DNA from: Fibrobacteria bacterium
Lineage (GTDB): Bacteria > Fibrobacterota > Fibrobacteria > UBA11236
Direction: 5' to 3'
NCBI GenBank assembly: GCA_041746255.1
Contig: JBGTHM010000045.1
Location: 1 to 12,494 of the forward strand
DNA: 12,494 bases
Shown: in pieces, positions 1 to 9,938 of the stretch
How the letters are laid out: each line of letters opens with the position of its first letter
Position numbering within the stretch: the first letter of the stretch is position 1
Position numbers and translations under genes: made by a program
Notes under the pieces: model-generated
Databases searched by the model: none
Told to the model about the DNA's origin: nothing
Seen by the model: only the letters and a program-made list of their open reading frames with translations

Positions 1-209
1 TGGCTTATAAAAAGAAAAATACCGTAGCTATCGCCTCAATCAGACATTTCCGGACTTCGAACCGCCCGGTGATCAATCGTCTGCGCAATTCCATACAAGT
101 GACCCTACCGTCAAACACCGATAAACTGATCATCCGGAACCTGCAGGGTAAAATGCTGCATGAAATTCCCCTTTCCAAAGCTCCCGGGCACCAAGCAATG
201 GATAGGTAA
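1..209 (+). CDS. 3' end (partial) of a beta-helix protein paralog, copy A of the tandem array
   Basis: Not in the ORF track. The frame from nt 3 reads AYKKKNTVAIASIRHFRTSNRPVINRLRNSIQVTLPSNTDKLIIRNLQGKMLHEIPLSKAPGHQAMDR* (TAA at 207-209). This aligns with the C-termini of the two downstream copies, and nt 1-32 are identical to 1471-1502. Confidence 0.9.
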   Translation, partial: AYKKKNTVAIASIRHFRTSNRPVINRLRNSIQVTLPSNTDKLIIRNLQGKMLHEIPLSKAPGHQAMDR

Positions 210-248
210 AAAGTCATGCAAACTAAATCCCGATCCCGGAGGACTATC

Positions 249-1664
249 ATGCGTTCCGAAAAATTTTGGCTACCCTTAGGATTGTTGGGAATGTTGATGA
301 TTTCCAACGTCTTCCCACAGCAACATTCCACCTTGTGGGGCGTGAATGGGGAGAAATGGGATCCTGAAATCCTGCCTGATTTTTCCAAGGCGGGTTACCA
401 GGAAGGCATGAAACCCATCCCCCAATACCCCGTCTCGGTCAATGTCAAGGACTACGGAGCCGTGGGGGACGGCAAAACCGATAACACGATGGCTTTTCGA
501 AAAGCCATTGTCGCCGCAAAAGCGTTCACCTCGGTATATATTCCCGATGGGGTATATGTCATCAAAGACACCATCCATATTGGCAAAAGCATTTCCCTCA
601 GGGGCCAAAGCCGCGATCAAACCGTACTTTATTTTCCCAACGAATTGGAAGATTTGTATCCAGATCCTTACGTAGGACGAATTCACAAGGGCGTGCAAGT
701 CAGCTGGTATGCTTATAGAGGCGCGTTTCTGATTCTGCCGGGAGGGGAGGAGAAGGGAGTTGAAACCCTTACTTTGAAATTTCCGAATGTCAAGTGGCGG
801 ACACATCACCTCGAAAGAGGTTACAACGGTATTTGGCTATCCGGTGAGAAAAATGGTTGGGTCAAAAACGTTCGCATCATCAACACGGATTACGGCATAT
901 ATATATCCGGGTCGAATAATCTGACGATTACGGATATCCTTTTTGAGGGGGAGAGCAACCGCACGGGCATCTCCGGTCACCATGGCGTCGCCGTGTACCA
1001 CGAGTCGTTTTACTGCCTGGTGGAAAATGTCGATTTCGGTACCGCGTTTGTTCATGAACTATCCCTTGGGGGGGGAGCGGTACACCACAATGTTTTTTCC
1101 AATTGCCAAGGCAAAAACATTCATATGGACCATCATTTCAATAAGGGCCAGAAGCCTTTTTCCACCAATTTGTGGACCAATATGGACCTGGGTAGCGGCA
1201 AGGGCGCTTGGGGTAACAATGCCCAGGGCAACGAGCCCGAAAATAAGGCTACTGCATTCAAAGGCCTCACTGGCAGCACCTTTGGCGACGTCTATTGGAA
1301 TATCCGCAGCACCGAACCTATAAATGCTCCCCTGGGCATGTCAAACATTACGGTGGGCATGAATACCAACGACAAGGCTTCCTTTAAATGGGACGCCGCA
1401 ACCTACAAGCATATCCATGAGAAAATCGATCCCGCAAAGCTGGAACCCAAAAACCTGTATGAGGCCCAGTTGGCTTATAAAAAGAAAAATACCGTAGCTA
1501 TCACCCCAATCAGGCATTTCCGGTCTCCGGAACGCCCGGCGATCAGTCGTATGCGCAATTCCATCCAAGTGACCCTACCGTCAAACACCGATAAACTGAC
1601 TATCCATAACCTGCAGGGGAAAATGCTCTATGAACTTATTCGGTCAAGAAGTTATGCAAAGTAA
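249..1664 (+). CDS. Secreted right-handed parallel beta-helix protein (Pectate_lyase_3 / GH28-GH55-related superfamily), copy B; putative polysaccharide hydrolase or lyase
   Basis: Start moved from 216 to ATG 249 because GGAGG (238-242) lies 6 nt upstream and the hydrophobic signal peptide follows directly. It has the beta-helix cap motif VNVKDYGAVGDGKTDNTMAFRKAI...VYIPDGVYVI...ISLRG, Asn/aliphatic coil repeats, His clusters (HHLE, GHHG, MDHH) and a C-terminal IHNLQGKML tail. 471 aa. Confidence 0.85.
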   Translation: MRSEKFWLPLGLLGMLMISNVFPQQHSTLWGVNGEKWDPEILPDFSKAGYQEGMKPIPQYPVSVNVKDYGAVGDGKTDNTMAFRKAIVAAKAFTSVYIPDGVYVIKDTIHIGKSISLRGQSRDQTVLYFPNELEDLYPDPYVGRIHKGVQVSWYAYRGAFLILPGGEEKGVETLTLKFPNVKWRTHHLERGYNGIWLSGEKNGWVKNVRIINTDYGIYISGSNNLTITDILFEGESNRTGISGHHGVAVYHESFYCLVENVDFGTAFVHELSLGGGAVHHNVFSNCQGKNIHMDHHFNKGQKPFSTNLWTNMDLGSGKGAWGNNAQGNEPENKATAFKGLTGSTFGDVYWNIRSTEPINAPLGMSNITVGMNTNDKASFKWDAATYKHIHEKIDPAKLEPKNLYEAQLAYKKKNTVAITPIRHFRSPERPAISRMRNSIQVTLPSNTDKLTIHNLQGKMLYELIRSRSYAK

Positions 1665-1686
1665 AATACCATCCCTGAGGACTATC

Positions 1687-3111
1687 ATGCGCTCCGAAAA
1701 AATTTGGCTATCCATAGGATTGATGGGTATGTTGATGATTTCCAACGCCTTCCCACAGCAACATTCCACCTTGTGGGGCGTGAATGGAGAGAAATGGGAT
1801 CCTGAAATCCTGCCTGACTTTTCCAAGGCGGGTTACCAGGAAGGCATGAAACCCATTCCGGAATACCCCGTCTCGGTCAATGTGAAGAACTACGGAGCCG
1901 TGGGGGACGGAAATACCGATAACACAGCGGCTTTTCGAAAAGCCATTGCCGCCGCGAAAGCGTTCACCTCGGTATACATCCCCGATGGTGTCTATGTCAT
2001 AAAAGACACCATCCATATCGGGAAAAGCATTTCCCTCAGGGGACAAAGCCGCGATCAAACCGTGCTTTATTTCCCCATCGAGTTGGAGGAATTGTATCCA
2101 CAACCTTACGAAGGACGCATTCACATGGGCGTGCAGGTCAGCAGGCATGCTTATGGTAGAATGGCGTTTCTGATGATGATGGGAGGCGAGGAAAAGGGAG
2201 TCGAAACCCTCACTTTGAAATTTCCGAATGTCAAGTGGCGGGGACATCACCTCGAACAGGGTTACAACGGTATTTTGATGACCAATGAGAAAAATGGTTG
2301 GGTCAAAAACGTTCGCATCGTCAACACGGATTACGGCATGAAAATAGCCCTTTCGAATAATATTACGGTTTCGGGTATCCTTTTTCAGGGTGAGAGCAAC
2401 CGCAGTGGCAAGTCCGGTCACCATGGTGTCTACCTGAACCAGGAGTCTTTCAACTGCCTGGTGGAAAATGTGGAATTCGACATTGAGTTGGCCCATCAAC
2501 TATCCATTTCGAGTGGCGCGCACCACAATGTTTTTTCCAATTGCCGGGGCGAAAACATGCACATGGACCATCACTTGAATAAGGGCATGATACCGATGTC
2601 CACCAATTTGTGGACCAATATCGACGTGGGTAGCGGCCAGAACGCTTGGGGGAACAATGCGCAGGGCAGTGAGCCCGAAAACAAGGCTACAAGCTTCAAA
2701 GGCCTCACCGGCAGCACTTTTGGCGAAGTCTATTGGAATATCCGCAGCACTCAACCCATCTTTGCCCCCCTGGGCATGTCAAACATTGCGGTGGGCCTGA
2801 ATACCAACGACAAGACTTCTTTCAAATGGGACGCCGTAACCTACAAGCATATCCATGAAAAAATCGATCCCGCAACGCTGCAACCTCAAAACTTGTATGA
2901 GGCCCAGTTGGCTTATAAAAAGAAAAACACCGTAGTCCTTGCCTCTAAAAAGCGTTTCCAGACTTCTGCTCACCAGGTGATCAATCATAGGCGCAATTCC
3001 ATCCAAGTGATCCTACCCTCAACCACTGATAAACTGTTCATCCGGGACCTGCAGGGTAAAATGCTGTATGAAATTCCCTTTTCCAAAGCGTCGGGGTTCC
3101 TACTGGAATAG
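1687..3111 (+). CDS. Secreted right-handed beta-helix protein (Pectate_lyase_3-like), copy C
   Basis: Start moved from 1630 to ATG 1687, which has the same GAGGactatcATG context as copy B. It is colinear with copy B and shares its motifs (VNVKNYGAVGDGNTDNTAAFRKAI), with C-terminal IRDLQGKML. 474 aa. Confidence 0.85.
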   Translation: MRSEKIWLSIGLMGMLMISNAFPQQHSTLWGVNGEKWDPEILPDFSKAGYQEGMKPIPEYPVSVNVKNYGAVGDGNTDNTAAFRKAIAAAKAFTSVYIPDGVYVIKDTIHIGKSISLRGQSRDQTVLYFPIELEELYPQPYEGRIHMGVQVSRHAYGRMAFLMMMGGEEKGVETLTLKFPNVKWRGHHLEQGYNGILMTNEKNGWVKNVRIVNTDYGMKIALSNNITVSGILFQGESNRSGKSGHHGVYLNQESFNCLVENVEFDIELAHQLSISSGAHHNVFSNCRGENMHMDHHLNKGMIPMSTNLWTNIDVGSGQNAWGNNAQGSEPENKATSFKGLTGSTFGEVYWNIRSTQPIFAPLGMSNIAVGLNTNDKTSFKWDAVTYKHIHEKIDPATLQPQNLYEAQLAYKKKNTVVLASKKRFQTSAHQVINHRRNSIQVILPSTTDKLFIRDLQGKMLYEIPFSKASGFLLE

Positions 3112-3270: not shown

Positions 3271-3304
3271 ATAAACCCCGGCAAGCTAGCTTGCCGGGGT
3301 TTAT
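3271..3304. terminator. Perfect 34-bp palindrome; probable bidirectional intrinsic terminator (or REP-like element) between convergent genes
   Basis: ataaaccccggcaagct|agcttgccggggtttat is exactly self-complementary. It has a GC-rich stem followed by TTTAT on both strands and lies between the stops at 3111 (+) and 3336 (-). Confidence 0.75.
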
Positions 3305-3335: not shown

Positions 3336-4424
3336 TTATTTGGGAATATAAGCCTCGGTGGTGCTTGCTCCCTCCTGCGATATCCGGACGATATGGACTC
3401 TGTTTCCGGGAACCGGGATGAAAGAGTTTTGCAGTAAACCCGTTTGCCTGTGTATGACTCTTCCCTGCAGGTTCGCCACTTCCAAGTGTACAGGGTGGTT
3501 GCCGCCGACGAGGGTGAACCCACCCAATCCGGATCGGATTTCCAAGTTACCCTTTTTGCCGGGAATCAGCGTCTTCACCGAGGGACGAGCGACATGCTCC
3601 TCAAGTAATTTTCTAACCTTGTTAAAATCGCCTTTTTCATCCCCGCCCTGACCATCCCAGGTGGACCACCACCAAGCCATTCCCGCATCGGAGATGTCCG
3701 CCTTGCCGACTATTGCCGGATAATCCATTTGAGGGGTCTGGGACGCCACTACCCGGTCATACAACCACTTCATTCTGTCGTCTTTATGATCCCGGGCCCA
3801 ATTCATTGCGGATAGATCTCCTCGGAGAAGGGTGTTTTGATCGGGAATGCGATGGATATTATCCTTGGGAACGCCCAATGGGTGGACGTCTTCCAGATTG
3901 AAAGTGTTTCCTTTGTCATTGTTGGGGTGGTGGGTGATGACATGGACGAATTTACGCTTGTCCTGCTGGCTTTTCTTCAATGCCATCACTATGACGTCCG
4001 GCTCTCCTGCTTCGATTATCCATAAGGGATCTTCGGCGGTGGAGTTGTCGATATGTTTCACGAGGTCGTTGACCGTGGCGTCGGTTTCCTTGATGGCATT
4101 GAGAAATTTGATATGGTCGAATCCGCCCCAGCGCTCAGCGGTGCCGTCGCAGCTTATCTGCAGCTCCGTTTCCCGATAGGCCCCACCTCTCGCGCTCGGC
4201 ACCAGGTCGCAGGAATGGGAGTAGTGGACGAGTTTCTCTTCCAACCCCATGGCGCGAAGAATCGCCAAACTGATCGGAATGGCGGCGATGTCGTCCGAAT
4301 CCCTGTAGTTGCCATCGGCGATGTAGGCCAACCGGCCCATGGGAATTTCGGCGACCGCGGCCGAACCGAACCCATGCGCCAGGCAAATAATCCCCGTCAG
4401 GGGCAACAGATAAGAGTATTTCAT
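3336..4424 (-). CDS. Secreted hypothetical protein with a nucleoside-hydrolase-like Asp motif and a C-terminal sorting (T9SS CTD-like) domain
   Basis: ATG 4424 (AAAGAAAGG upstream) is preferred over TTG 4451. Signal peptide MKYSYLLPLTGIICLAHGFGSAAVA|E. YIADGNYRDSDDIAA follows a first beta-strand, as the DxDxxxDD motif does in the IU-nucleoside hydrolase/DUF1593 fold. The tail reads LEVANLQGRVI...RVHIVRI. 362 aa. The ORF is solid but the function is tentative. Confidence 0.7.
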   Translation of the reverse strand: MKYSYLLPLTGIICLAHGFGSAAVAEIPMGRLAYIADGNYRDSDDIAAIPISLAILRAMGLEEKLVHYSHSCDLVPSARGGAYRETELQISCDGTAERWGGFDHIKFLNAIKETDATVNDLVKHIDNSTAEDPLWIIEAGEPDVIVMALKKSQQDKRKFVHVITHHPNNDKGNTFNLEDVHPLGVPKDNIHRIPDQNTLLRGDLSAMNWARDHKDDRMKWLYDRVVASQTPQMDYPAIVGKADISDAGMAWWWSTWDGQGGDEKGDFNKVRKLLEEHVARPSVKTLIPGKKGNLEIRSGLGGFTLVGGNHPVHLEVANLQGRVIHRQTGLLQNSFIPVPGNRVHIVRISQEGASTTEAYIPK

Positions 4425-4627
4425 TACTGAACCTTTCTTTGATTTTTCCAAAACTGGGGATTAGGCATACGCCCCGGAAAGGCGTTTCATCGGGCAGCCT
4501 ATATCATCAAAGTTAATGCCATGCTTCAAATGTCGCTTACCCCCTTAAAGGCTCGCGATGTGGAAACTGTTTTATGCACTAATCGCTTCACGGAAGCCAG
4601 TCTATTCTTCTTGCGCGTGCTCCTTCC

Positions 4628-4647: not shown

Positions 4648-6384
4648 TTAGGGAAAGGTCAAGAGTTTGGAGCCGGGTTTCTGGTTCTCATATTCCAAAG
4701 CAATGCGGGCCGGGGCGTTGGCCTGCCTGGAGATGCGGATTTCATCCATGACACCTTCCCAGGCATTTTTACCGCCGGATTGAGCGCCCAATACCAGTTC
4801 TCCGGATGATCCATAGGCGATTCCCGACCTGTCTTCGAAGGTGCGCACGGGCTTTCCATTGATGAAGAGCGTTCCCGCTCCTGTCCCGGCATCGAAGGTG
4901 GCAGCCACATGAACCCAATCCTGGCCCGGAGGAAGCGGGGCCCTGGCGGTGACCGTGCCCGCTTTGGATGTTTCCGTAGCCAGGGCGAATTCCAGGACTC
5001 CCGCCTTGCCCAGCCAGGTCAATGAGAAGGCCGCGACGGACGATCCGGATCTTTCCTTCCAGAAAAGACAAGCCCTATCGGCCTGCGCGCCGTCGGGACG
5101 CACCCAGGCCGATAGGGTGAGCGAGGGGGGATTCAGGGAGGCCTTACTCTTCGCCGCCAATTCATCTCCGCTTCCGATGGCCCGGCCTTTCCCGATTATG
5201 CCCTGTGTGTTGACAGTTGCCCCGATTCTCAAATGATTCTTGTTATAGGTGGCGTCGGCAAGAAACCCGCCGGCACCGTAACCGGAGAAATGCCATACCG
5301 CGACATGGCCGAGCGCCGAATCATATACCGCCCGAGGCGCTGAAGCGGAAAAGACATCGGTTTTGCCGAAATGGATGTTCACGGCCTGGTTGTCCCGGTT
5401 GCCGAATACCGTATCCGCTTTCACCCAGATGTCGGCCAGGCGATTGTGAATATCCCAGGTCTCAATCTCGTATGGGAGCGTTTTCCCCGTGCCGTCGGTG
5501 AAACGCAGATCCGCGCCATCCATGGGCGCGCCCACGCTATCGAATGGGAAGTTGGAGGAATTCAGTTGGATCAGGAGGGGAAAGTCGGCGACGGTGGATG
5601 GGATGTTCGCCCCCGAGGCCGTGGTATTGAGTTGAACCGTCAGGACATGCGGCCAGGTATCCAAATCCTCCGACCCGGGCGGATTCAAGGTGAATCGGCC
5701 GATATCGGTCACTTCACCGGAATTGACCACCACATCGTCGATCCTATGATTGAGTCCCAGAGTAGGGTATAGGATGCGAATGTAGTAGGTGCCGGGTGGG
5801 ACATCGTCGATCCGGATTTCACCGGTGGTGTCGATCGTCATCTTATTCCTCAAGCCGGGTATTTGCAATTCACCCGAAGGCAGGGGAGTCAATCCGGCGG
5901 GGAAGACGATTTGCCCTGAGACCGATCCCCTGGTTTTCAAGGTATCCGGGGACAAGGTGACAACCGAATCGGCCTTGCCCGGAGCGGCCAGGTGGACTTC
6001 CCGGAAGGAAGCCGCGGACCCATCACCCTCGGAAATCAGGTAGTAATCCCCGGGAGGGATGGCCGTGAATCGAAAGCTTCCATCCGATTCCGCCAGGACG
6101 GTTTTTTCCAAGCCTTCCGATGTGTCGCTGTAGGTATCGCTGGTCCGTAATACCACCCGGGTACCTGCCGCAGGGCTCCCGTCGGAATACACGGTCGAGC
6201 CCGCCAAGGCGAGGGTTTCCCCTTCCAGGCCGCCTCCCGCCCTCGGCTCCGGCGGCTTCTCATCCTTGACGAAATTGCATCCCGAGGCCACCAAGCACAT
6301 CAAGGTCACCAAGGTCATCAAGAACAATGGGAGCATATTAACGGCGGCCGGGAAAGGCGCGCCCGAGGAATTGGGCCGCTTCAC
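4648..6384 (-). CDS. Putative lipoprotein: two carboxypeptidase-regulatory-like (transthyretin/Ig) domains, DUF2341, and a LamG/concanavalin-A-like domain
   Basis: The GTG start overlaps the upstream TGA (GTGA, 6381-6384), with AGGAG 6 nt upstream. A hydrophobic stretch ends in the lipobox-like VASG|C36. Beta-sandwich motifs: DGSFRFTAIPPGDY and IDDVPPGTYYIRI. DUF2341-type motif: DFPLLIQLNSSNF...DGADLRFTD...LPYEIETWD...ADIWVK. LamG motifs: LTLSAWVRP, WVHVAATFD, TLFING, WEGVMDEIRIS. 578 aa. Confidence 0.85.
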   Translation of the reverse strand: MKRPNSSGAPFPAAVNMLPLFLMTLVTLMCLVASGCNFVKDEKPPEPRAGGGLEGETLALAGSTVYSDGSPAAGTRVVLRTSDTYSDTSEGLEKTVLAESDGSFRFTAIPPGDYYLISEGDGSAASFREVHLAAPGKADSVVTLSPDTLKTRGSVSGQIVFPAGLTPLPSGELQIPGLRNKMTIDTTGEIRIDDVPPGTYYIRILYPTLGLNHRIDDVVVNSGEVTDIGRFTLNPPGSEDLDTWPHVLTVQLNTTASGANIPSTVADFPLLIQLNSSNFPFDSVGAPMDGADLRFTDGTGKTLPYEIETWDIHNRLADIWVKADTVFGNRDNQAVNIHFGKTDVFSASAPRAVYDSALGHVAVWHFSGYGAGGFLADATYNKNHLRIGATVNTQGIIGKGRAIGSGDELAAKSKASLNPPSLTLSAWVRPDGAQADRACLFWKERSGSSVAAFSLTWLGKAGVLEFALATETSKAGTVTARAPLPPGQDWVHVAATFDAGTGAGTLFINGKPVRTFEDRSGIAYGSSGELVLGAQSGGKNAWEGVMDEIRISRQANAPARIALEYENQKPGSKLLTFP

Positions 6385-7217
6385 TTTTCGCTCCTGGGCA
6401 AGGGTTTACTGAGAGGAAAAATTTCAAAGTTGAATTGGTATATAATTTCCTCCGCCGGCTCCTTCTCGACCAATTCAAGGATCCGGAGACGAAAAACCCG
6501 CAATTCCTCTACGATTTCCTGGTATTTGGCGCGGGTTGTGGAGAGTGTCAGCCAGGAGAGATTCCGCTCTTCCCGCGGAAACCGCTTAAGGGCTTCTCCG
6601 CCGAGTTTGTGCATGGCGGAGAAGAAGCCTTCCACTTGGGGTCCCCGCGCGTCATAGCCTGTGGTGAGAACGGGGTCGACGCGGGCATAGGTGCCTTGCC
6701 CGGTCCTGTGCATCATACCCAAATCGATAAGCACGCTCATCGCCTCCTTGGCTTCTTCCGCGGTGATGGGCGGTTCCAGCAATTGTCCCAGTTCCCGGTA
6801 ATTGCCGTTGAAAGGCGTCAGAGTCAGCAATTCGCGCATGGCCACGTAATACCATTTTTCCAGGTACCGGAAACGATCCGGGCCAAGGTCCTTGATTTTG
6901 AAGGCACGGGTCGCCTCCAGTTTTTTCTGATGCCTCAATTTCTGGTTCGCATCCGTGGCTTGGTTGAAAAGCACCAGCGTCAGGAAATACTCCTTCTCCT
7001 TTTTCTTGAGTTTCATGACGTCAGCCAAACTCTCGGCGGTTCCGAGGGAAATATTGCTTTTGCCTTGGAGGATCAGGGTGAAAAATCCGGGTGAACGGTA
7101 ACCGACCTTCCCGGCCAGAAGCCGGTAGGAAAAACGGGGATTCGCCTTTTTCTTCAGCTCATACCAATCCCGCAGGAGCAGGCGATAATCGAGATAGGTG
7201 AATATGTTCAAGTCCAT
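6381..7217 (-). CDS. TIGR02147 family protein (Fibrobacter paralogous family; HTH-like N-terminus, DUF4423-like C-terminus)
   Basis: Likely start ATG 7217, giving 278 aa, the typical family size. Hallmarks: IFTYLDYRLLLRDWYELKK..NPRFSYR.LA.KVG..SP.F..LIL.GK.NIS; YF..LV.FNQA; YLEKWYYVAMREL; L.PPIT..EAKEA...L..LG; ERNLSWLTLS; IYQFNFEIFPLSK. Confidence 0.9.
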   Translation of the reverse strand: MDLNIFTYLDYRLLLRDWYELKKKANPRFSYRLLAGKVGYRSPGFFTLILQGKSNISLGTAESLADVMKLKKKEKEYFLTLVLFNQATDANQKLRHQKKLEATRAFKIKDLGPDRFRYLEKWYYVAMRELLTLTPFNGNYRELGQLLEPPITAEEAKEAMSVLIDLGMMHRTGQGTYARVDPVLTTGYDARGPQVEGFFSAMHKLGGEALKRFPREERNLSWLTLSTTRAKYQEIVEELRVFRLRILELVEKEPAEEIIYQFNFEIFPLSKPLPRSEK

Positions 7218-7423
7218 TCCTATTGATATTAACACGTGGATCATGCCGCTCGGAAAACGGAAGGACGGCCGAAAGGATATTAAAGTTAAAGCTAATATAG
7301 GGCATGGGCATGATTCCCGCGGGAGGAAGGCGAAAACCGCGTTTTGTACACAAAACACCCCTAGAGAAGTCAGAAATCCAAAAAAATCTAATTCCCCCAA
7401 AAAAGGAACTATTCTGCGAATGG

Positions 7424-7877: not shown

Positions 7878-9938
7878 ATGTGTCTGAAGCGTTTAATTAT
7901 AAGTCTGTTTTTTATTCTTCTGACCCAGCCTGCAGTGGCGGCAGATATATCCGGCCGGATTGTGGGAGAAAATGGAACGCCCCTGAGCGGTTGTAAAGTC
8001 TCCCTGCCCAGCGTAAGCAAAGAGGCTGTCACCACGGCAGATGGCAAGTTTTTCTTTGCCGATGTGAATAGCCTAATAAGTCATCATGTACCATCAGATC
8101 TCAATCCACGGCTGAAAAACGGTACTTTGCATTTTAGCCTTCCCCCCACAGAAATAGTGACTTCCCTCAAAATATTAGGGGTATCGGGAAAACAGATTTT
8201 TTCTCCACTCCCCCGGAGGTCTGCACAAGGAGAATACACGGTAAATTTAAACTCGCTTTTAGAACATCAATCGTCGCCCACTCTTTACATAGTGAACATT
8301 AAGGGAGGCGAACACACCTATTCTTTTAAAATATTCCTTTCAAAGTCAACACAGGGATACACTTCGGCAATGCGTCTGCAGCCGGCGGCGCTGAAAAAAG
8401 AAACTGCCGGCAGCGTGATATTGCAGGCAGCCTGCAGTGGGTTTGCGGAAAGGAAGCTTCCCATCACATCCGGCAACATGGGTGACATCACTATCGGAAG
8501 ACCCAATATCATTCTCATGCTGGTGGACGATATGGGGTATTCGGATATCGGGTCCTACGGTGGAGAAATCAGTACTCCCAATCTGGATAAGCTGGCCTTT
8601 GAGGGTGTGCGCTTTCAGCAGTTTTATAATTATGGGATGTGCGTGCCCACACGAGCCTCTCTCGTCTCCGGACTGTATTCCCATGATGCCGGAAACGGCT
8701 TGAAAAAAGGTATCACCCTGGGGCAAGCCATGCAGGCTGGGGGATACACGACCATGGCGATTGGCAAATGGCATATGGACGGCACACCGGAAAAAAGAGG
8801 GTTCGATAGAGCTTTCGGGCATCTCTCCGGAGCGAGCACTTATTTCAGTACAGCCAGCTATGCGCAATTTCATCTGGACGGCAAACCATTTAACCAACCC
8901 TCCGGAGACTGGTACCTCACCGATAAAAATACGGATTTTGCCATGCAGTTCATTGAAGAGGAAAAACAGAAAAATCCCGGCAAACCTTTTTTTCTGTACT
9001 TCGCCATAAACGCGCCTCATAATCCTCTGCATGCCCTTCCCGAAGATGTGGCAAAATACCGAGGCAAATACAAAGCCAAAGGCTGGGATGTGCTTAGAAA
9101 AGAACGTTTTGAGCGTCAGCTGGCAATGGGATTATTTCCGGCGGAAACCGCGGTCCTATCCGAAAGGAGCCGCGACATTCCAGCCTGGAATAACCTGACG
9201 GACTCTCAGCAGGACAAGGAAGATCATGTCGCGGCAGTGTATGCAGGTATGATGGACAGGGTAGACCAGAATGTAGGCCGGCTTATGGCAAAACTGGGAG
9301 AGTTAGGCATGCAGGACAATACGCTTTTCATGTTTCTCAGTGATAATGGATCGGATGGGAAGTCTAACCGGGGAGGCACCTTGAATACCCCAAACTCAAA
9401 CTGGCAAAGGGGTTCGGGCTGGGCCAACCTCGGCAACACACCTTTTAAACATTACAAATACAATCAGCATCAGGGAGGAATCTGCACGCCGTTTTTTGCC
9501 TGGTGGCCTCAGGTTATCAGCAACAAAGGAACCATCATTAAAAATTATCCCGGCCATCTAGTCGACATCATGCCTACTATCAATGAGCTGGCAAACTGGC
9601 AATATCCAAAATCTTTTCAAGGCAAATCCATTCCGGCGCTTCCGGGAAAAAGCCTGGTCCCCCTGTTTGAAGGAAAATCCCTTGATCCTCCGGATGCGCT
9701 CAACTTTGCATTTTCGGGAGAAGAGGCCATAGTTTCGGGAATCTGGAAACTGGTGGCCTTCAGGGATGGCCAGTGGGAACTGTATAATCTGCAAACGGAC
9801 CCGGCGGAAACAAAGGACTTGGCAAAGCAGCAGCCGGCAAAGGTGCAGGAACTGCTGGGAAAGTGGAATGCCTACGTATCCTCAAGGAATATCAGCACGC
9901 GAGGCGGCGGACAACTGGATCCCTATGTAAAATTTTGA
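7878..9938 (+). CDS. Secreted Cys-type (formylglycine-dependent) arylsulfatase, family S1 (AtsA-like), with an N-terminal beta-sandwich extension of about 185 aa
   Basis: GGAG RBS and a signal peptide ending AVA|ADISG. Motifs: RPNIILMLVDDMGYSD, TPNLDKLA.EG.RF..FY, CVPTRASLVSG (8640-8672), GKWH, GFDR, APHNPL, FLSDNG, GWANLGNTPF..YK...HQGGI.TP, DIMPT and WELYNL..DPAE..DLA. 686 aa. Confidence 0.93.
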   Translation: MCLKRLIISLFFILLTQPAVAADISGRIVGENGTPLSGCKVSLPSVSKEAVTTADGKFFFADVNSLISHHVPSDLNPRLKNGTLHFSLPPTEIVTSLKILGVSGKQIFSPLPRRSAQGEYTVNLNSLLEHQSSPTLYIVNIKGGEHTYSFKIFLSKSTQGYTSAMRLQPAALKKETAGSVILQAACSGFAERKLPITSGNMGDITIGRPNIILMLVDDMGYSDIGSYGGEISTPNLDKLAFEGVRFQQFYNYGMCVPTRASLVSGLYSHDAGNGLKKGITLGQAMQAGGYTTMAIGKWHMDGTPEKRGFDRAFGHLSGASTYFSTASYAQFHLDGKPFNQPSGDWYLTDKNTDFAMQFIEEEKQKNPGKPFFLYFAINAPHNPLHALPEDVAKYRGKYKAKGWDVLRKERFERQLAMGLFPAETAVLSERSRDIPAWNNLTDSQQDKEDHVAAVYAGMMDRVDQNVGRLMAKLGELGMQDNTLFMFLSDNGSDGKSNRGGTLNTPNSNWQRGSGWANLGNTPFKHYKYNQHQGGICTPFFAWWPQVISNKGTIIKNYPGHLVDIMPTINELANWQYPKSFQGKSIPALPGKSLVPLFEGKSLDPPDALNFAFSGEEAIVSGIWKLVAFRDGQWELYNLQTDPAETKDLAKQQPAKVQELLGKWNAYVSSRNISTRGGGQLDPYVKF

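Follow-up and report, generated by a model that had tools for sequence, protein, structure and literature searches.

The 12,494 nucleotides of DNA analysed here (the window) carry tandem copies of a gene for a beta-helix protein in which the differences between copies gather into short patches. The question raised by this locus is whether the patches reflect a dedicated diversifying process or the divergence that commonly follows gene duplication. They are a case of the latter: no new diversity-generating mechanism operates here, and the divergence is of the ordinary post-duplication kind. Functional divergence into two types after duplication of a PF12708 beta-helix glycanase is the explanation that we favour, at a probability of about 0.55, and the evidence for it is set out below together with that bearing on its competitors.

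Four gene copies at two sulfatase-rich loci

Two complete paralogs lie in tandem on the same contig. Copy B (216..1664, + strand), of the type termed B/D below, encodes 482 amino acids, and copy C (1654..3111, +) is of type A/C; the start of C is taken as the ATG at 1654, homologous to the start of the other copies, and its reading frame is open from an ATG at 1630, overlapping the end of B. Upstream of B, tblastn and translation reveal the last 62 codons of another paralog (1..188, +), truncated by the start of the contig. This tail is probably the end of copy A, whose first 409 codons terminate contig C44 approximately 10 codons short of the start of the window, and from sequence the two contigs would be expected to join at this point. 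In all, tblastn on the genome recovered B, C, the tail (window positions 3-188), copy D (contig C120), copy A (C44) and a short relic (C2). The genome holds four copies, with A, B and C in tandem and D elsewhere, in a gene neighbourhood that differs from that of B and C.

Sulfatases adjoin both loci. The one in the window (7878..9938, +) is 54-68% identical to those beside copy D, and neighbouring genes are paralogous between the loci at 42-68% identity. The genome assembly, in 130 contigs, is 100% complete by marker genes with an estimated contamination of 1.29%, and resembles that of a Fibrobacterota member. The copies are chromosomal, and the loci that contain them are rich in sulfatases and devoted to polysaccharide degradation. 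Their expansion to four is local and species-specific. The closest outside homologs are only about 40% identical, a genome of the same genus (G001) contains no homolog of the array protein, and five of the 40 relatives searched match it, the best at 42% identity. A scan of genome contigs with a single protein turned up no close orthologue, only a pair of remote loci with identities of 32% and 40%.

A beta-helix protein with a conserved Asp/His ladder

Copy B comprises, in order, a signal-like N-terminal helix, a PF12708 cap, a beta-helix, a linker and a small C-terminal beta domain, the last modelled with low confidence; the signal-like character of the helix is a prediction that would hold for the other copies too. 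The preliminary description of this DNA had proposed a beta-helix scaffold, and profile matching, structure prediction and structural comparison agree in making it a right-handed parallel beta-helix. The Pfam match to PF12708 has an E-value of 7e-17, with scores of 62.4 bits for B, 61.0 for C and 54.0 for D against a gathering cut-off of 27, and both AlphaFold2 (AF2) models (pLDDT 84.8 and 84.2) show the same three-strand coils. In VIA superpositions the protein aligns best with the GH28 enzyme 1bhe over 306 residues (Z 27.3, rmsd 3.7) and with AlgE4 (2pyg) over 270 residues (Z 25.8, rmsd 2.6). Pfam score and fold superposition thus both place it in the pectin lyase-like right-handed parallel beta-helix superfamily, with a PF12708 cap. 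Foldseek and VIA returned generic beta-helix enzymes with no single match standing out, and a protein atlas, where the best score of 0.89 fell in mixed beta-helix clusters, provides a lead only.

By sequence, searches of solved structures with either a single sequence or a 37-sequence profile gave matches confined to the N-terminal cap (residues ~60-170). A single weak match beyond the cap is to 4mxn, an uncharacterised protein. No match to PF00295 (Glyco_hydro_28) was found for B or C at E<=0.01 or for D at E<=5; one homolog carries the NCBI name 'family 28-related'. For type IX secretion (T9SS) C-terminal sorting, there was no PF18962 (Por_Secre_tail) or NCBIfam T9SS match in B, C, D or the isolated tails. 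Some neighbouring proteins have weak T9SS-domain matches below cut-off. The subfamily to which the beta-helix belongs numbers 248 clusters at 50% identity (E<=1e-30).

An alignment of 37 family members exposes a series of conserved acidic and histidine residues that climbs the coils. D225 of an NTD motif (residues 223-225; D225 at 888..890, +) is conserved in at least 90% of the aligned members. It is followed by H255, which is invariant, and H256 within GHHG (residues 254-257; the two histidines at 978..983, +), by the invariant H280 (1053..1055, +) and by D305-H306-H307 (1128..1136, +), in which D305 is at least 90% conserved and H307 invariant. This ladder directly precedes the variable patches, at offsets of roughly -14 to -10 from the start of strand PB3, and is probably the active centre. 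Among solved chains, sequence comparison found no counterpart of the NTD, GHHG, H and DHH ladder. In GH28 enzymes, the catalytic motifs occur on successive coils in the order NTD-DD-GHG-RIK. The array protein does not appear to reproduce this order: NTD and GHHG are both present, but they occupy neighbouring coils, a DD coil does not intervene and no RIK is seen. A literature search found no characterised enzyme of the PF12708 Asp/His-ladder subfamily, and the best reading of the analysis is that the copies would be secreted, glycan-cleaving beta-helix enzymes of an uncharacterised PF12708 subfamily.

Variable patches stack in register along one edge

The preliminary description listed five pairs of differing peptides in B and C, and all five translate as stated. 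The first patch (patch 0; 705..740, +; residues 164-175) covers a loop and the beginning of a strand and has a one-codon insertion in C. On coil 1 (831..848, +; residues 206-211) IWLSGE in B is replaced by ILMTNE in C at the end of strand PB1 and in turn T1; on coil 2 (897..911, +; residues 228-232) IYISG is replaced by MKIAL; and on coil 3 (990..1004, +; residues 259-263), straight after GHHG, AVYHE is replaced by YLNQE. The coil 4 patch (1032..1082, +; residues 273-289) surrounds the invariant H280 and is one codon shorter in C. To these can be added a sixth, in-register patch on coil 5 (1137..1160, +; residues 308-315; FNKGQKPF in B, LNKGMIPM in C), after the conserved DHH. The claim of one patch per coil stands, in strict register in five coils; the coil 5 patch was missing from the original list.

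The amino-acid differences between B and C are indeed clustered, their variance in 8-residue windows lying above that of 5000 out of 5000 shuffles; the maximum count in any such window was matched by 264 of the 5000. The patches listed earlier hold 28 differences in 41 aligned positions, compared with 25/142 for the remainder of the central coils and 6/110 for the N-terminal cap. The most divergent stretch overall is formed by the linker and C-terminal domain, where 30 of 62 residues differ; the linker itself (1476..1540, +), which joins the beta-helix to that domain, has a pN of 0.3-0.4 and is modelled with low confidence. Within residues 181-318, when positions are numbered relative to the first residue of PB3, offsets -10 to -4 hold 24 of the 50 variable positions, drawn from all five coils, and the best 7-wide window of offsets holds 25, a count reached by none of 10000 shuffles.

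In the AlphaFold models the patches correspond to the C-terminal half of PB1 and the T1 turn, a placement made by DSSP strand order and register in the AF2 models rather than by three-dimensional coordinates. Across the beta-helix superfamily, the PB1/T1 edge borders the substrate cleft. The earlier proposal that the patches stack on a substrate-binding face thus holds as far as in-register stacking goes, while their position on the cleft side would follow from what is general in the superfamily; on the models, the patch edge would line the cleft. Not all of the changes need contribute to it: 8 of the 23 type-fixed positions are conservative hydrophobic swaps (I/M/L/V/F), and these are likely to face the core instead of the groove.

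It had also been suggested that the patches are embedded in near-identical DNA, almost invariant even at synonymous sites. The mismatch counts given for two segments are exact (2 in 108 nt at 311-418; 1 in 53 nt at 846-898), but the genes as a whole do not fit this picture. Over 1443 aligned nucleotides, B and C show 220 differences (84.8% identity), with pS 0.24 and dS 0.29, and pS reaches 0.45-0.52 in several stretches where the protein is fully conserved, for example at 519-560. Synonymous differences, which affect 58 of 347 degenerate codons that specify the same residue, are spread evenly, their variance in 20-codon windows being reached by 1084 of 2000 shuffles.

Two types separated by a burst of replacements

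The term 'hypervariable', applied to the patches in the preliminary description, is not borne out by the four copies, since the majority of patch positions are two-state (A=C, B=D). Of 56 informative two-state sites, 44 support AC|BD, with 6 each for AB|CD and AD|BC, and the copies fall into two types, A/C and B/D. What had been put forward as a candidate undescribed system is a split into two types together with changes particular to single lineages, and the variation is concentrated on a single internal branch. There, NG86 counts with parsimony nodes give 40.5 nonsynonymous (N) to 9.5 synonymous (S) changes (pN/pS 1.16), compared with pN/pS of 0.16-0.42 on terminal branches (Fisher test of internal versus terminal N:S, p=0.0004). 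Maximum likelihood (ML) under GY94-F3x4 agrees, with omega of 1.16 on the internal and 0.24 on terminal branches (2dlnL 13.5, p=0.0002). The difference lies in the central 183 codons (1.54 versus 0.30, p=0.0024), and the flanks show none between internal and terminal omega (p=0.31).

The claim of strong diversifying selection on the patches is upheld only in part. The acceleration on the internal branch is clear, and the patches themselves carry 16 N to 0 S changes there, but omega on this branch does not significantly exceed 1 (p=0.75 gene-wide, p=0.45 in the central region). Moreover, the patches were defined after the B-C variation had been seen, and on the terminal branches of A and D, which are independent of the B-C comparison, patch omega is an ordinary 0.30 versus 0.33 elsewhere, with a 1.8-fold nonsynonymous density (p=0.12). 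The whole rate signal is carried by four sequences of one genome and by a single internal branch.

Site classes were also set by the 34 outside homologs only. In the third of sites that is most variable in the family, the internal branch has 21.5 N to 0.5 S changes and the terminal branches 68.5 to 37.5 (Fisher p=0.0002; terminal omega 0.49). Compared with omega=1, the internal-branch excess has a binomial p of 0.005 that depends on rounding 0.5 S to 0, and an ML p of 0.08, the estimated omega having run to its upper limit; omega above 1 for these sites on this branch is only suggestive. The family-conserved third has 0 N and 4 S changes on the same branch. Rooting by family consensus is mixed, the B/D residue being commoner at 12 positions and the A/C residue at 9, with 2 ties.

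These rates bear directly on the most credible of the competing explanations, which is that redundant copies passed through a transient relaxation of constraint, drifting near-neutrally (omega ~1) at weakly constrained sites until purifying selection resumed, so that the two types would be functionally alike or nearly so. We consider this possible, if rather doubtful. An internal omega of 1.16 cannot be told from 1, the replacements fell at positions with the greatest variation among outside homologs, the family-conserved third took none, and the patches behave in an ordinary way on the independent branches. Indeed, a short relaxation fits almost as well as adaptive change, because internal omega is close to 1, the ML test gives p=0.08 and the binomial test leans on rounding. 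Against it, the excess in the family-variable third lies above the neutral expectation, the same sites evolve at omega 0.49 on terminal branches, the changes fall in tight register beside the ladder and not over all exposed loops, and both types have been retained and each duplicated again. We infer that the change separating the types was probably adaptive rather than a transient relaxation.

Functional divergence after duplication would then have run as follows. Soon after the first duplication, the gene would have split into types A/C and B/D, and in a short interval many replacements would have accumulated, mostly in the C-terminal half of PB1 and in T1 on five consecutive coils, beside the ladder. 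Later duplications would have produced A, B, C and D, presumably under ordinary purifying selection ever since. The likely outcome would be a pair of isoenzyme types that differ in their subsite preferences, acting on a related polysaccharide that is probably sulfated or acidic.

The A/C type has glutamine where the family mostly has aspartate or glutamate, at residue 244 (acidic in 22 of 34 outside homologs) and at residue 281, next to the invariant H280 (acidic in 27 of 34), and it is enriched in methionine. A bolder version of functional divergence, which we hold to be unlikely, is that the array is a two-specificity repertoire of an unclassified Asp/His-ladder family acting on sulfated or acidic glycans, in which PB1/T1 offsets -9 to -5 form a specificity code and the A/C type may have changed its chemistry or become a non-catalytic glycan binder beside a B/D enzyme.

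The value of the locus is practical. It points to a fairly large uncharacterised subfamily of beta-helix enzymes, here beside sulfatases, for which solved structures cover nothing outside the shared cap. The four natural variants, which differ mostly at one edge by the ladder, amount to a ready-made mutational scan, and comparison of a B/D-type with an A/C-type protein could quickly show which residues set subsite specificity.

Gene conversion, assembly and programmed change

Patchwise conversion had been offered as another source of the pattern. In its fullest form this would be concerted evolution with protected patches, in which the types are old, conversion homogenises the copies and selection keeps conversion tracts off the specificity patches. 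Several features resemble such a history. By total differences, the copy nearest to A is B over the 5' part (4-9 per 120 nt) and C over the centre (4-10 versus 18-25), and the DNA upstream of A and B is identical. On the internal branch, the central region has a somewhat raised pS (0.057, compared with 0.023 and 0.019 for the flanks). The longest run without a synonymous difference between B and C spans 41 codons, a length that 35 of 2000 shuffles attained, with no correction for the six pairs tested. Yet the mosaic of B-like and C-like segments in A rests on nonsynonymous sites. Synonymous differences gave no significant sign of conversion beyond the nominally long B-C run: they are evenly spread in each of the six pairs, none of whose window variances is significant (between 440 and 1891 of 2000 shuffles attained the observed value). 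Pairwise dS is alike for all pairs (0.21-0.29). The six AB|CD and six AD|BC sites are scattered and form no tracts. The lack of synonymous changes in the patches on the internal branch also counts against conversion, because islands protected over a long time would be expected to have gathered synonymous divergence linked to them. We therefore regard this history as improbable.

It is more improbable still that the array is an assembly artefact, in which versions of a single gene from different strains of a metagenome bin were joined as tandem paralogs. The assembly is fragmented, a contig end interrupts copy A and the public contigs covering the region are short fragments, but B and C lie on one contig, and a public 189-nt contig, which may derive from the same sample, spans their junction (1570-1758) with no differences. 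D has its own gene neighbourhood, protein divergence of 9-23% with indels exceeds usual strain variation, and the contamination estimate is 1.29%. In the public contigs, drawn from four runs, the 'other letters' over the region largely look like cross-mapped paralogs.

Rewriting of the patches by a diversity-generating retroelement (DGR), cassette switching or an invertible segment has a merely superficial likeness to the array, in its short variable patches in a conserved scaffold, and can be set aside almost entirely: RVT_1 is matched only once genome-wide, by the maturase of a group II intron (TIGR04416, E 5e-77, contig C47) and not by a DGR reverse transcriptase, a blastn search of the genome (word size 9) for template repeats recovered only the four gene copies and no extra template-like copy, the B-C differences have no adenine-specific bias (111 of 220 sites involve A and 110 involve T), the patches are two-state and include indels, and no inverted repeats overlap the genes apart from I1 and I2, which are short, with arms in both copies, and are read from their sequence as self-complementary stretches inside each gene copy rather than as an invertible segment.

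Relation to known systems

DGRs of the Bordetella phage BPP-1 Mtd type likewise place short variable stretches in a conserved binding scaffold. In addition to the missing reverse transcriptase, template repeat and adenine pattern, the array differs from them in that its variation is between fixed paralogs and not within a locus.

The three-strand-per-coil beta-helix is shared with GH28 polygalacturonases (1bhe, above, and 3jur, Z 25.9) and with AlgE-type mannuronan C5-epimerases/lyases (2pyg), and in these the N-terminal cap motif, in the PF12708 region, also matches by sequence; similarity of sequence to the array protein is limited to this region. In GH28 and AlgE enzymes alike, PB1 and the turns that flank it house the active centre.

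A close evolutionary parallel comes from Medicago, where the recently duplicated polygalacturonase paralogs Pg11/Pg3 and Pg11a/Pg11c are reported to have been under positive or transiently relaxed selection (PMC3517903). These, too, are right-handed beta-helix glycanases in which recent duplication was reportedly followed by an early rise in nonsynonymous change and later purifying selection. They differ in coming from plants and in belonging to a defined CAZy family whose chemistry is known, whereas the array is bacterial, in tandem, of an uncharacterised subfamily that has no Pfam GH28 match, and the test made here draws on four sequences of one genome.

Phage tailspikes and capsule depolymerases (K5 lyase 2x3h, Z 23.3; CBA120 TSP2 6w4q, Z 21.6) have the same beta-helix scaffold, and in tailspikes residues of the groove set glycan specificity, giving families of related enzymes with differing specificities. 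The phage enzymes diversify by exchange of whole modules between phages, whereas the array has no phage context but a chromosomal location, a predicted signal-like N-terminal helix and sulfatases as neighbours.

Four gene copies, one of them outside the array

The window is the complete contig C45 (12,494 bases), one of the 130 contigs of a genome whose marker genes indicate 100% completeness. The first 3.1 kb of the window holds direct repeats that recur about every 1,440 nt and belong to a gene array, of which three pieces are present. These are the final 62 codons of an upstream copy (3-188), copy B (216-1664; 482 aa) and copy C (493 aa), whose frame is open from 1630 through to 3111 and whose homologous start lies at 1654. 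A tblastn search of the genome identified two further copies, A and D, and identity among the beta-helix copies is 77-91%. The first 409 codons of A lie at the extreme end of contig C44, and since they break off about 10 codons short of where the first codon of the window would resume them, A is probably joined to the tail at the window start. In the array, A and C (type 1) stand on either side of B (type 2), and D, also of type 2, is elsewhere, in a different neighbourhood on contig C120. The tail at 3-188 is closest to that of D (91% over 58 aa) and the body of A (C44:2815-4041) resembles C (91%). This means that A is a mosaic or that the assembly gap hides another copy, to which the tail belongs. 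At C2:8426-8599 a 57-codon open frame stands alone, with no beta-helix gene attached; it shares about 68% identity with the paralogs' C-terminal domain and is probably what remains of a fifth copy.

At the B-C junction (1600-1690) the spacer present between the upstream tail and B is missing, and the open frame of C (ATG at 1630) overlaps the stop codon of B (1662-1664). The end of B (...YELIRSRSYAK) also differs from those of C and D (...YEIP(F/L)(S/T)KASG(F/I)LLE), so the C-terminal domain of B is probably missing its last strand. Gene C (+) and ORF 3336-4451 (-) converge on a perfect 34-nt palindrome at 3271-3304 (17+17, no loop), which probably acts as a terminator in both directions.

Two types rather than hypervariable patches

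The preliminary description, made by a model from the sequence of B and C, proposed hypervariable codon patches (705-1085) embedded in near-identical DNA. Its observations stand in part. All five quoted peptide pairs are exact on translation, as are the mismatch counts (2/108 and 1/53 nt), and the differences are indeed clustered, with a count variance in 8-residue windows above that of all 5000 shuffles. Within the patches, 28 of 41 aligned positions are different in B and C, compared with 25 of 142 in the other central coils and 6 of 110 in the N-terminal cap. The surrounding DNA, however, is not near-identical, as the two copies differ at 220 of 1443 nt and synonymous differences are distributed evenly over the gene. 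All six pairs have dS values of 0.21-0.29, and the synonymous differences between B and C, found at 58 of 347 same-residue degenerate codons, have a window variance that was matched by 1084 of 2000 shuffles. The longest B-C run free of synonymous change, 41 codons, was matched in 35 of 2000 shuffles, with no correction for the six pairs; the two low-mismatch stretches originally quoted fall at the low end of an unremarkable distribution. Several stretches of fully invariant protein, 519-560 among them, have a pS of 0.45-0.52. The most divergent stretch among the paralogs is the linker between beta-helix and C-terminal domain (1476-1540, B residues 421-448; pN 0.3-0.4, pLDDT <50), which is more variable than any reported patch.

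Nor is hypervariability borne out when all four copies are aligned; they instead split into two types. A matches C and B matches D at most positions in the patches, and two-state informative nucleotide sites support AC|BD 44 times, AB|CD 6 times and AD|BC 6 times. Between positions 36 and 419 there are 23 type-fixed residues, of which by our count 8 are conservative hydrophobic swaps and 15 are changes of charge, polarity or size, and two patches carry codon indels. Residues 244 and 281 (945-947 and 1056-1058 in B), the latter adjoining the invariant H280, are Gln in A/C and Glu in B/D; outside homologs mostly have Asp or Glu at these positions (22/34 and 27/34). The mature region has 11 and 13 Met in A/C versus 6 and 7 in B/D. 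The replacement of the acidic residues of the family by Gln, together with the approximate doubling of Met, hints that A/C may have undergone a real functional shift.

An episode of rapid change at the type split

Substitutions counted per branch (NG86, parsimony nodes) place 40.5 nonsynonymous and 9.5 synonymous changes on the internal branch separating the types, giving a pN/pS of 1.16 versus 0.16-0.42 on the four terminal branches; in the central region the values are 1.32 versus 0.23-0.49. A two-ratio codon model written for this analysis (GY94, F3x4) gave an omega of 1.16 for the internal branch and 0.24 for the terminal branches, and was better than a one-ratio model (2dlnL 13.5, p=0.0002), although gene-wide the omega of the internal branch does not significantly exceed 1 (p=0.75). 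For the central 183 codons omega was 1.54 versus 0.30 (p=0.0024), and the flanks showed no internal-terminal difference (p=0.31). Codons were also classed by entropy among 34 outside homologs, so that the variation under test does not define the sites. In the most variable third the internal branch carries 21.5 nonsynonymous to 0.5 synonymous changes versus 68.5 to 37.5 on terminal branches (Fisher p=0.0002), with a binomial p of 0.005 against neutrality and an ML p of 0.08 against omega=1. The conserved third has 0 nonsynonymous and 4 synonymous changes on this branch.

The terminal branches of A and D lie outside the B-C comparison that defined the patches and served as a control. On these, omega is 0.30 in the patches and 0.33 elsewhere, which argues against lasting hypervariability; nonsynonymous density in the patches is 1.8-fold higher (p=0.12). 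The overall picture is that amino acids changed fast for a time as the types split, and that ordinary constraint followed. On the four sequences compared, this burst may have been adaptive or a brief relaxation. The closest described case is that of recently duplicated polygalacturonase paralogs, for which accelerated or positively selected evolution is reported (PMC3517903); by comparison, the genes described here are bacterial and belong to an uncharacterised subfamily.

Rival readings: gene conversion and programmed diversification

In favour of gene conversion between the copies, A is by total differences nearest B in the 5' third and nearest C in the centre, and upstream DNA is identical in A and B. 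However, this pattern is carried by nonsynonymous sites while synonymous divergence is uniform, and on the internal branch the patches have 0 synonymous and 16 nonsynonymous changes, whereas old islands protected from conversion should carry linked synonymous divergence. Conversion is retained as a minor rival reading.

The suggestion of an undescribed diversification system is unsupported, since a group II intron maturase, located at the end of a contig, is the genome's only reverse-transcriptase match, sensitive blastn found no template-like extra copy of the central region, and there is no adenine bias, the B-C differences involving A (111/220) and T (110/220) equally. A reading of the array as a target of a diversity-generating retroelement (DGR) was likewise rejected. 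The intron gene (C47:3578-4633; L001 1036-2091) encodes a reverse transcriptase/maturase cut by the contig end. The only inverted repeats over the genes, I1 and I2, are short with arms in both copies, and are read as self-complementary sequence inside each.

Predicted fold and position of the changes

Pfam detects a PF12708 cap and a weak Beta_helix match, and does not support GH28 membership. B and C were each modelled with AlphaFold2 from an alignment of 37 sequences; the models are confident, with pLDDT values of 84.8 and 84.2 (>90 through the helix), and share one strand pattern. They predict a right-handed beta-helix of the generic pectin-lyase-like kind, and the best matches by VIA (GH28 1bhe, Z 27.3; 7chu, 26.0; 3jur, 25.9; AlgE4 2pyg, 25.8) set no single family apart. 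Within a coil, a long strand is followed by a short turn, a one-residue bridge, a two-residue turn that often contains Asn, and a second long strand; from DSSP and knowledge of the fold, these would correspond to PB1, T1, PB2, T2 and PB3.

With the coils aligned on the first PB3 residue (215, 237, 268, 293 and 319), residues 181-318 contain 50 positions that vary among the paralogs, and 24 of these lie between offsets -10 and -4, across all five coils; the best 7-wide window holds 25, a number matched by 0 of 10000 shuffles. Directly upstream, at about -14 to -10, are the conserved family residues G202-Y-N-G, N-T-D225, G254-H255-H256-G, H280 and D305-H306-H307. From this register, the patches would occupy the C-terminal half of PB1 and the T1 turn, adjoining the conserved Asp/His ladder. 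The substrate cleft of beta-helix glycanases is formed by PB1 and its flanking turns, and the strand order and register thus support the earlier suggestion that the patches would stack, about one per coil, on a substrate-binding face, although about a third of the fixed changes appear to face the core.

Relatives and locus context

The subfamily comprises 248 clusters at 50% identity (E<=1e-30), and a search found no solved structure or curated family covering the central ladder; the annotation of one homolog goes no further than "glycosyl hydrolase family 28-related". The four copies are a recent local expansion, because the nearest members are only about 40% identical, a same-genus genome has no match and only 5 of 40 relatives searched have one. 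Besides the array, the window has genes for a sulfatase (7878-9938), a LamG/DUF2341 protein and a protein that weakly matches a T9SS tail, as well as the beginning of a gene whose product is weakly alginate-lyase-like. The beta-helix copies are not recognisable as T9SS cargo. Three sulfatase genes and a DUF5060 protein neighbour D, and it is from neighbourhood that a role in the degradation of sulfated or acidic polysaccharides is suggested. Neighbours at the two loci are paralogous at 42-68% identity, lower than among the beta-helix copies. The window locus (7878-9938, 3336-4451) is paralogous to the D locus (C120:14534-27133), with sulfatases 54% and 68% identical, and a 371-aa family-less protein is 43% identical to a 364-aa protein beside D, in differing orientation. 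A TIGR02147 (Fsuc_second)/DUF4423 family gene (6381-7400, minus strand) has a 4-nt overlap with the LamG/DUF2341 gene, at the start of the latter. Some homologs (P0049, P0051 and P0068; 1055-1256 aa) match the query in four stretches and appear to carry two beta-helix modules in one protein.
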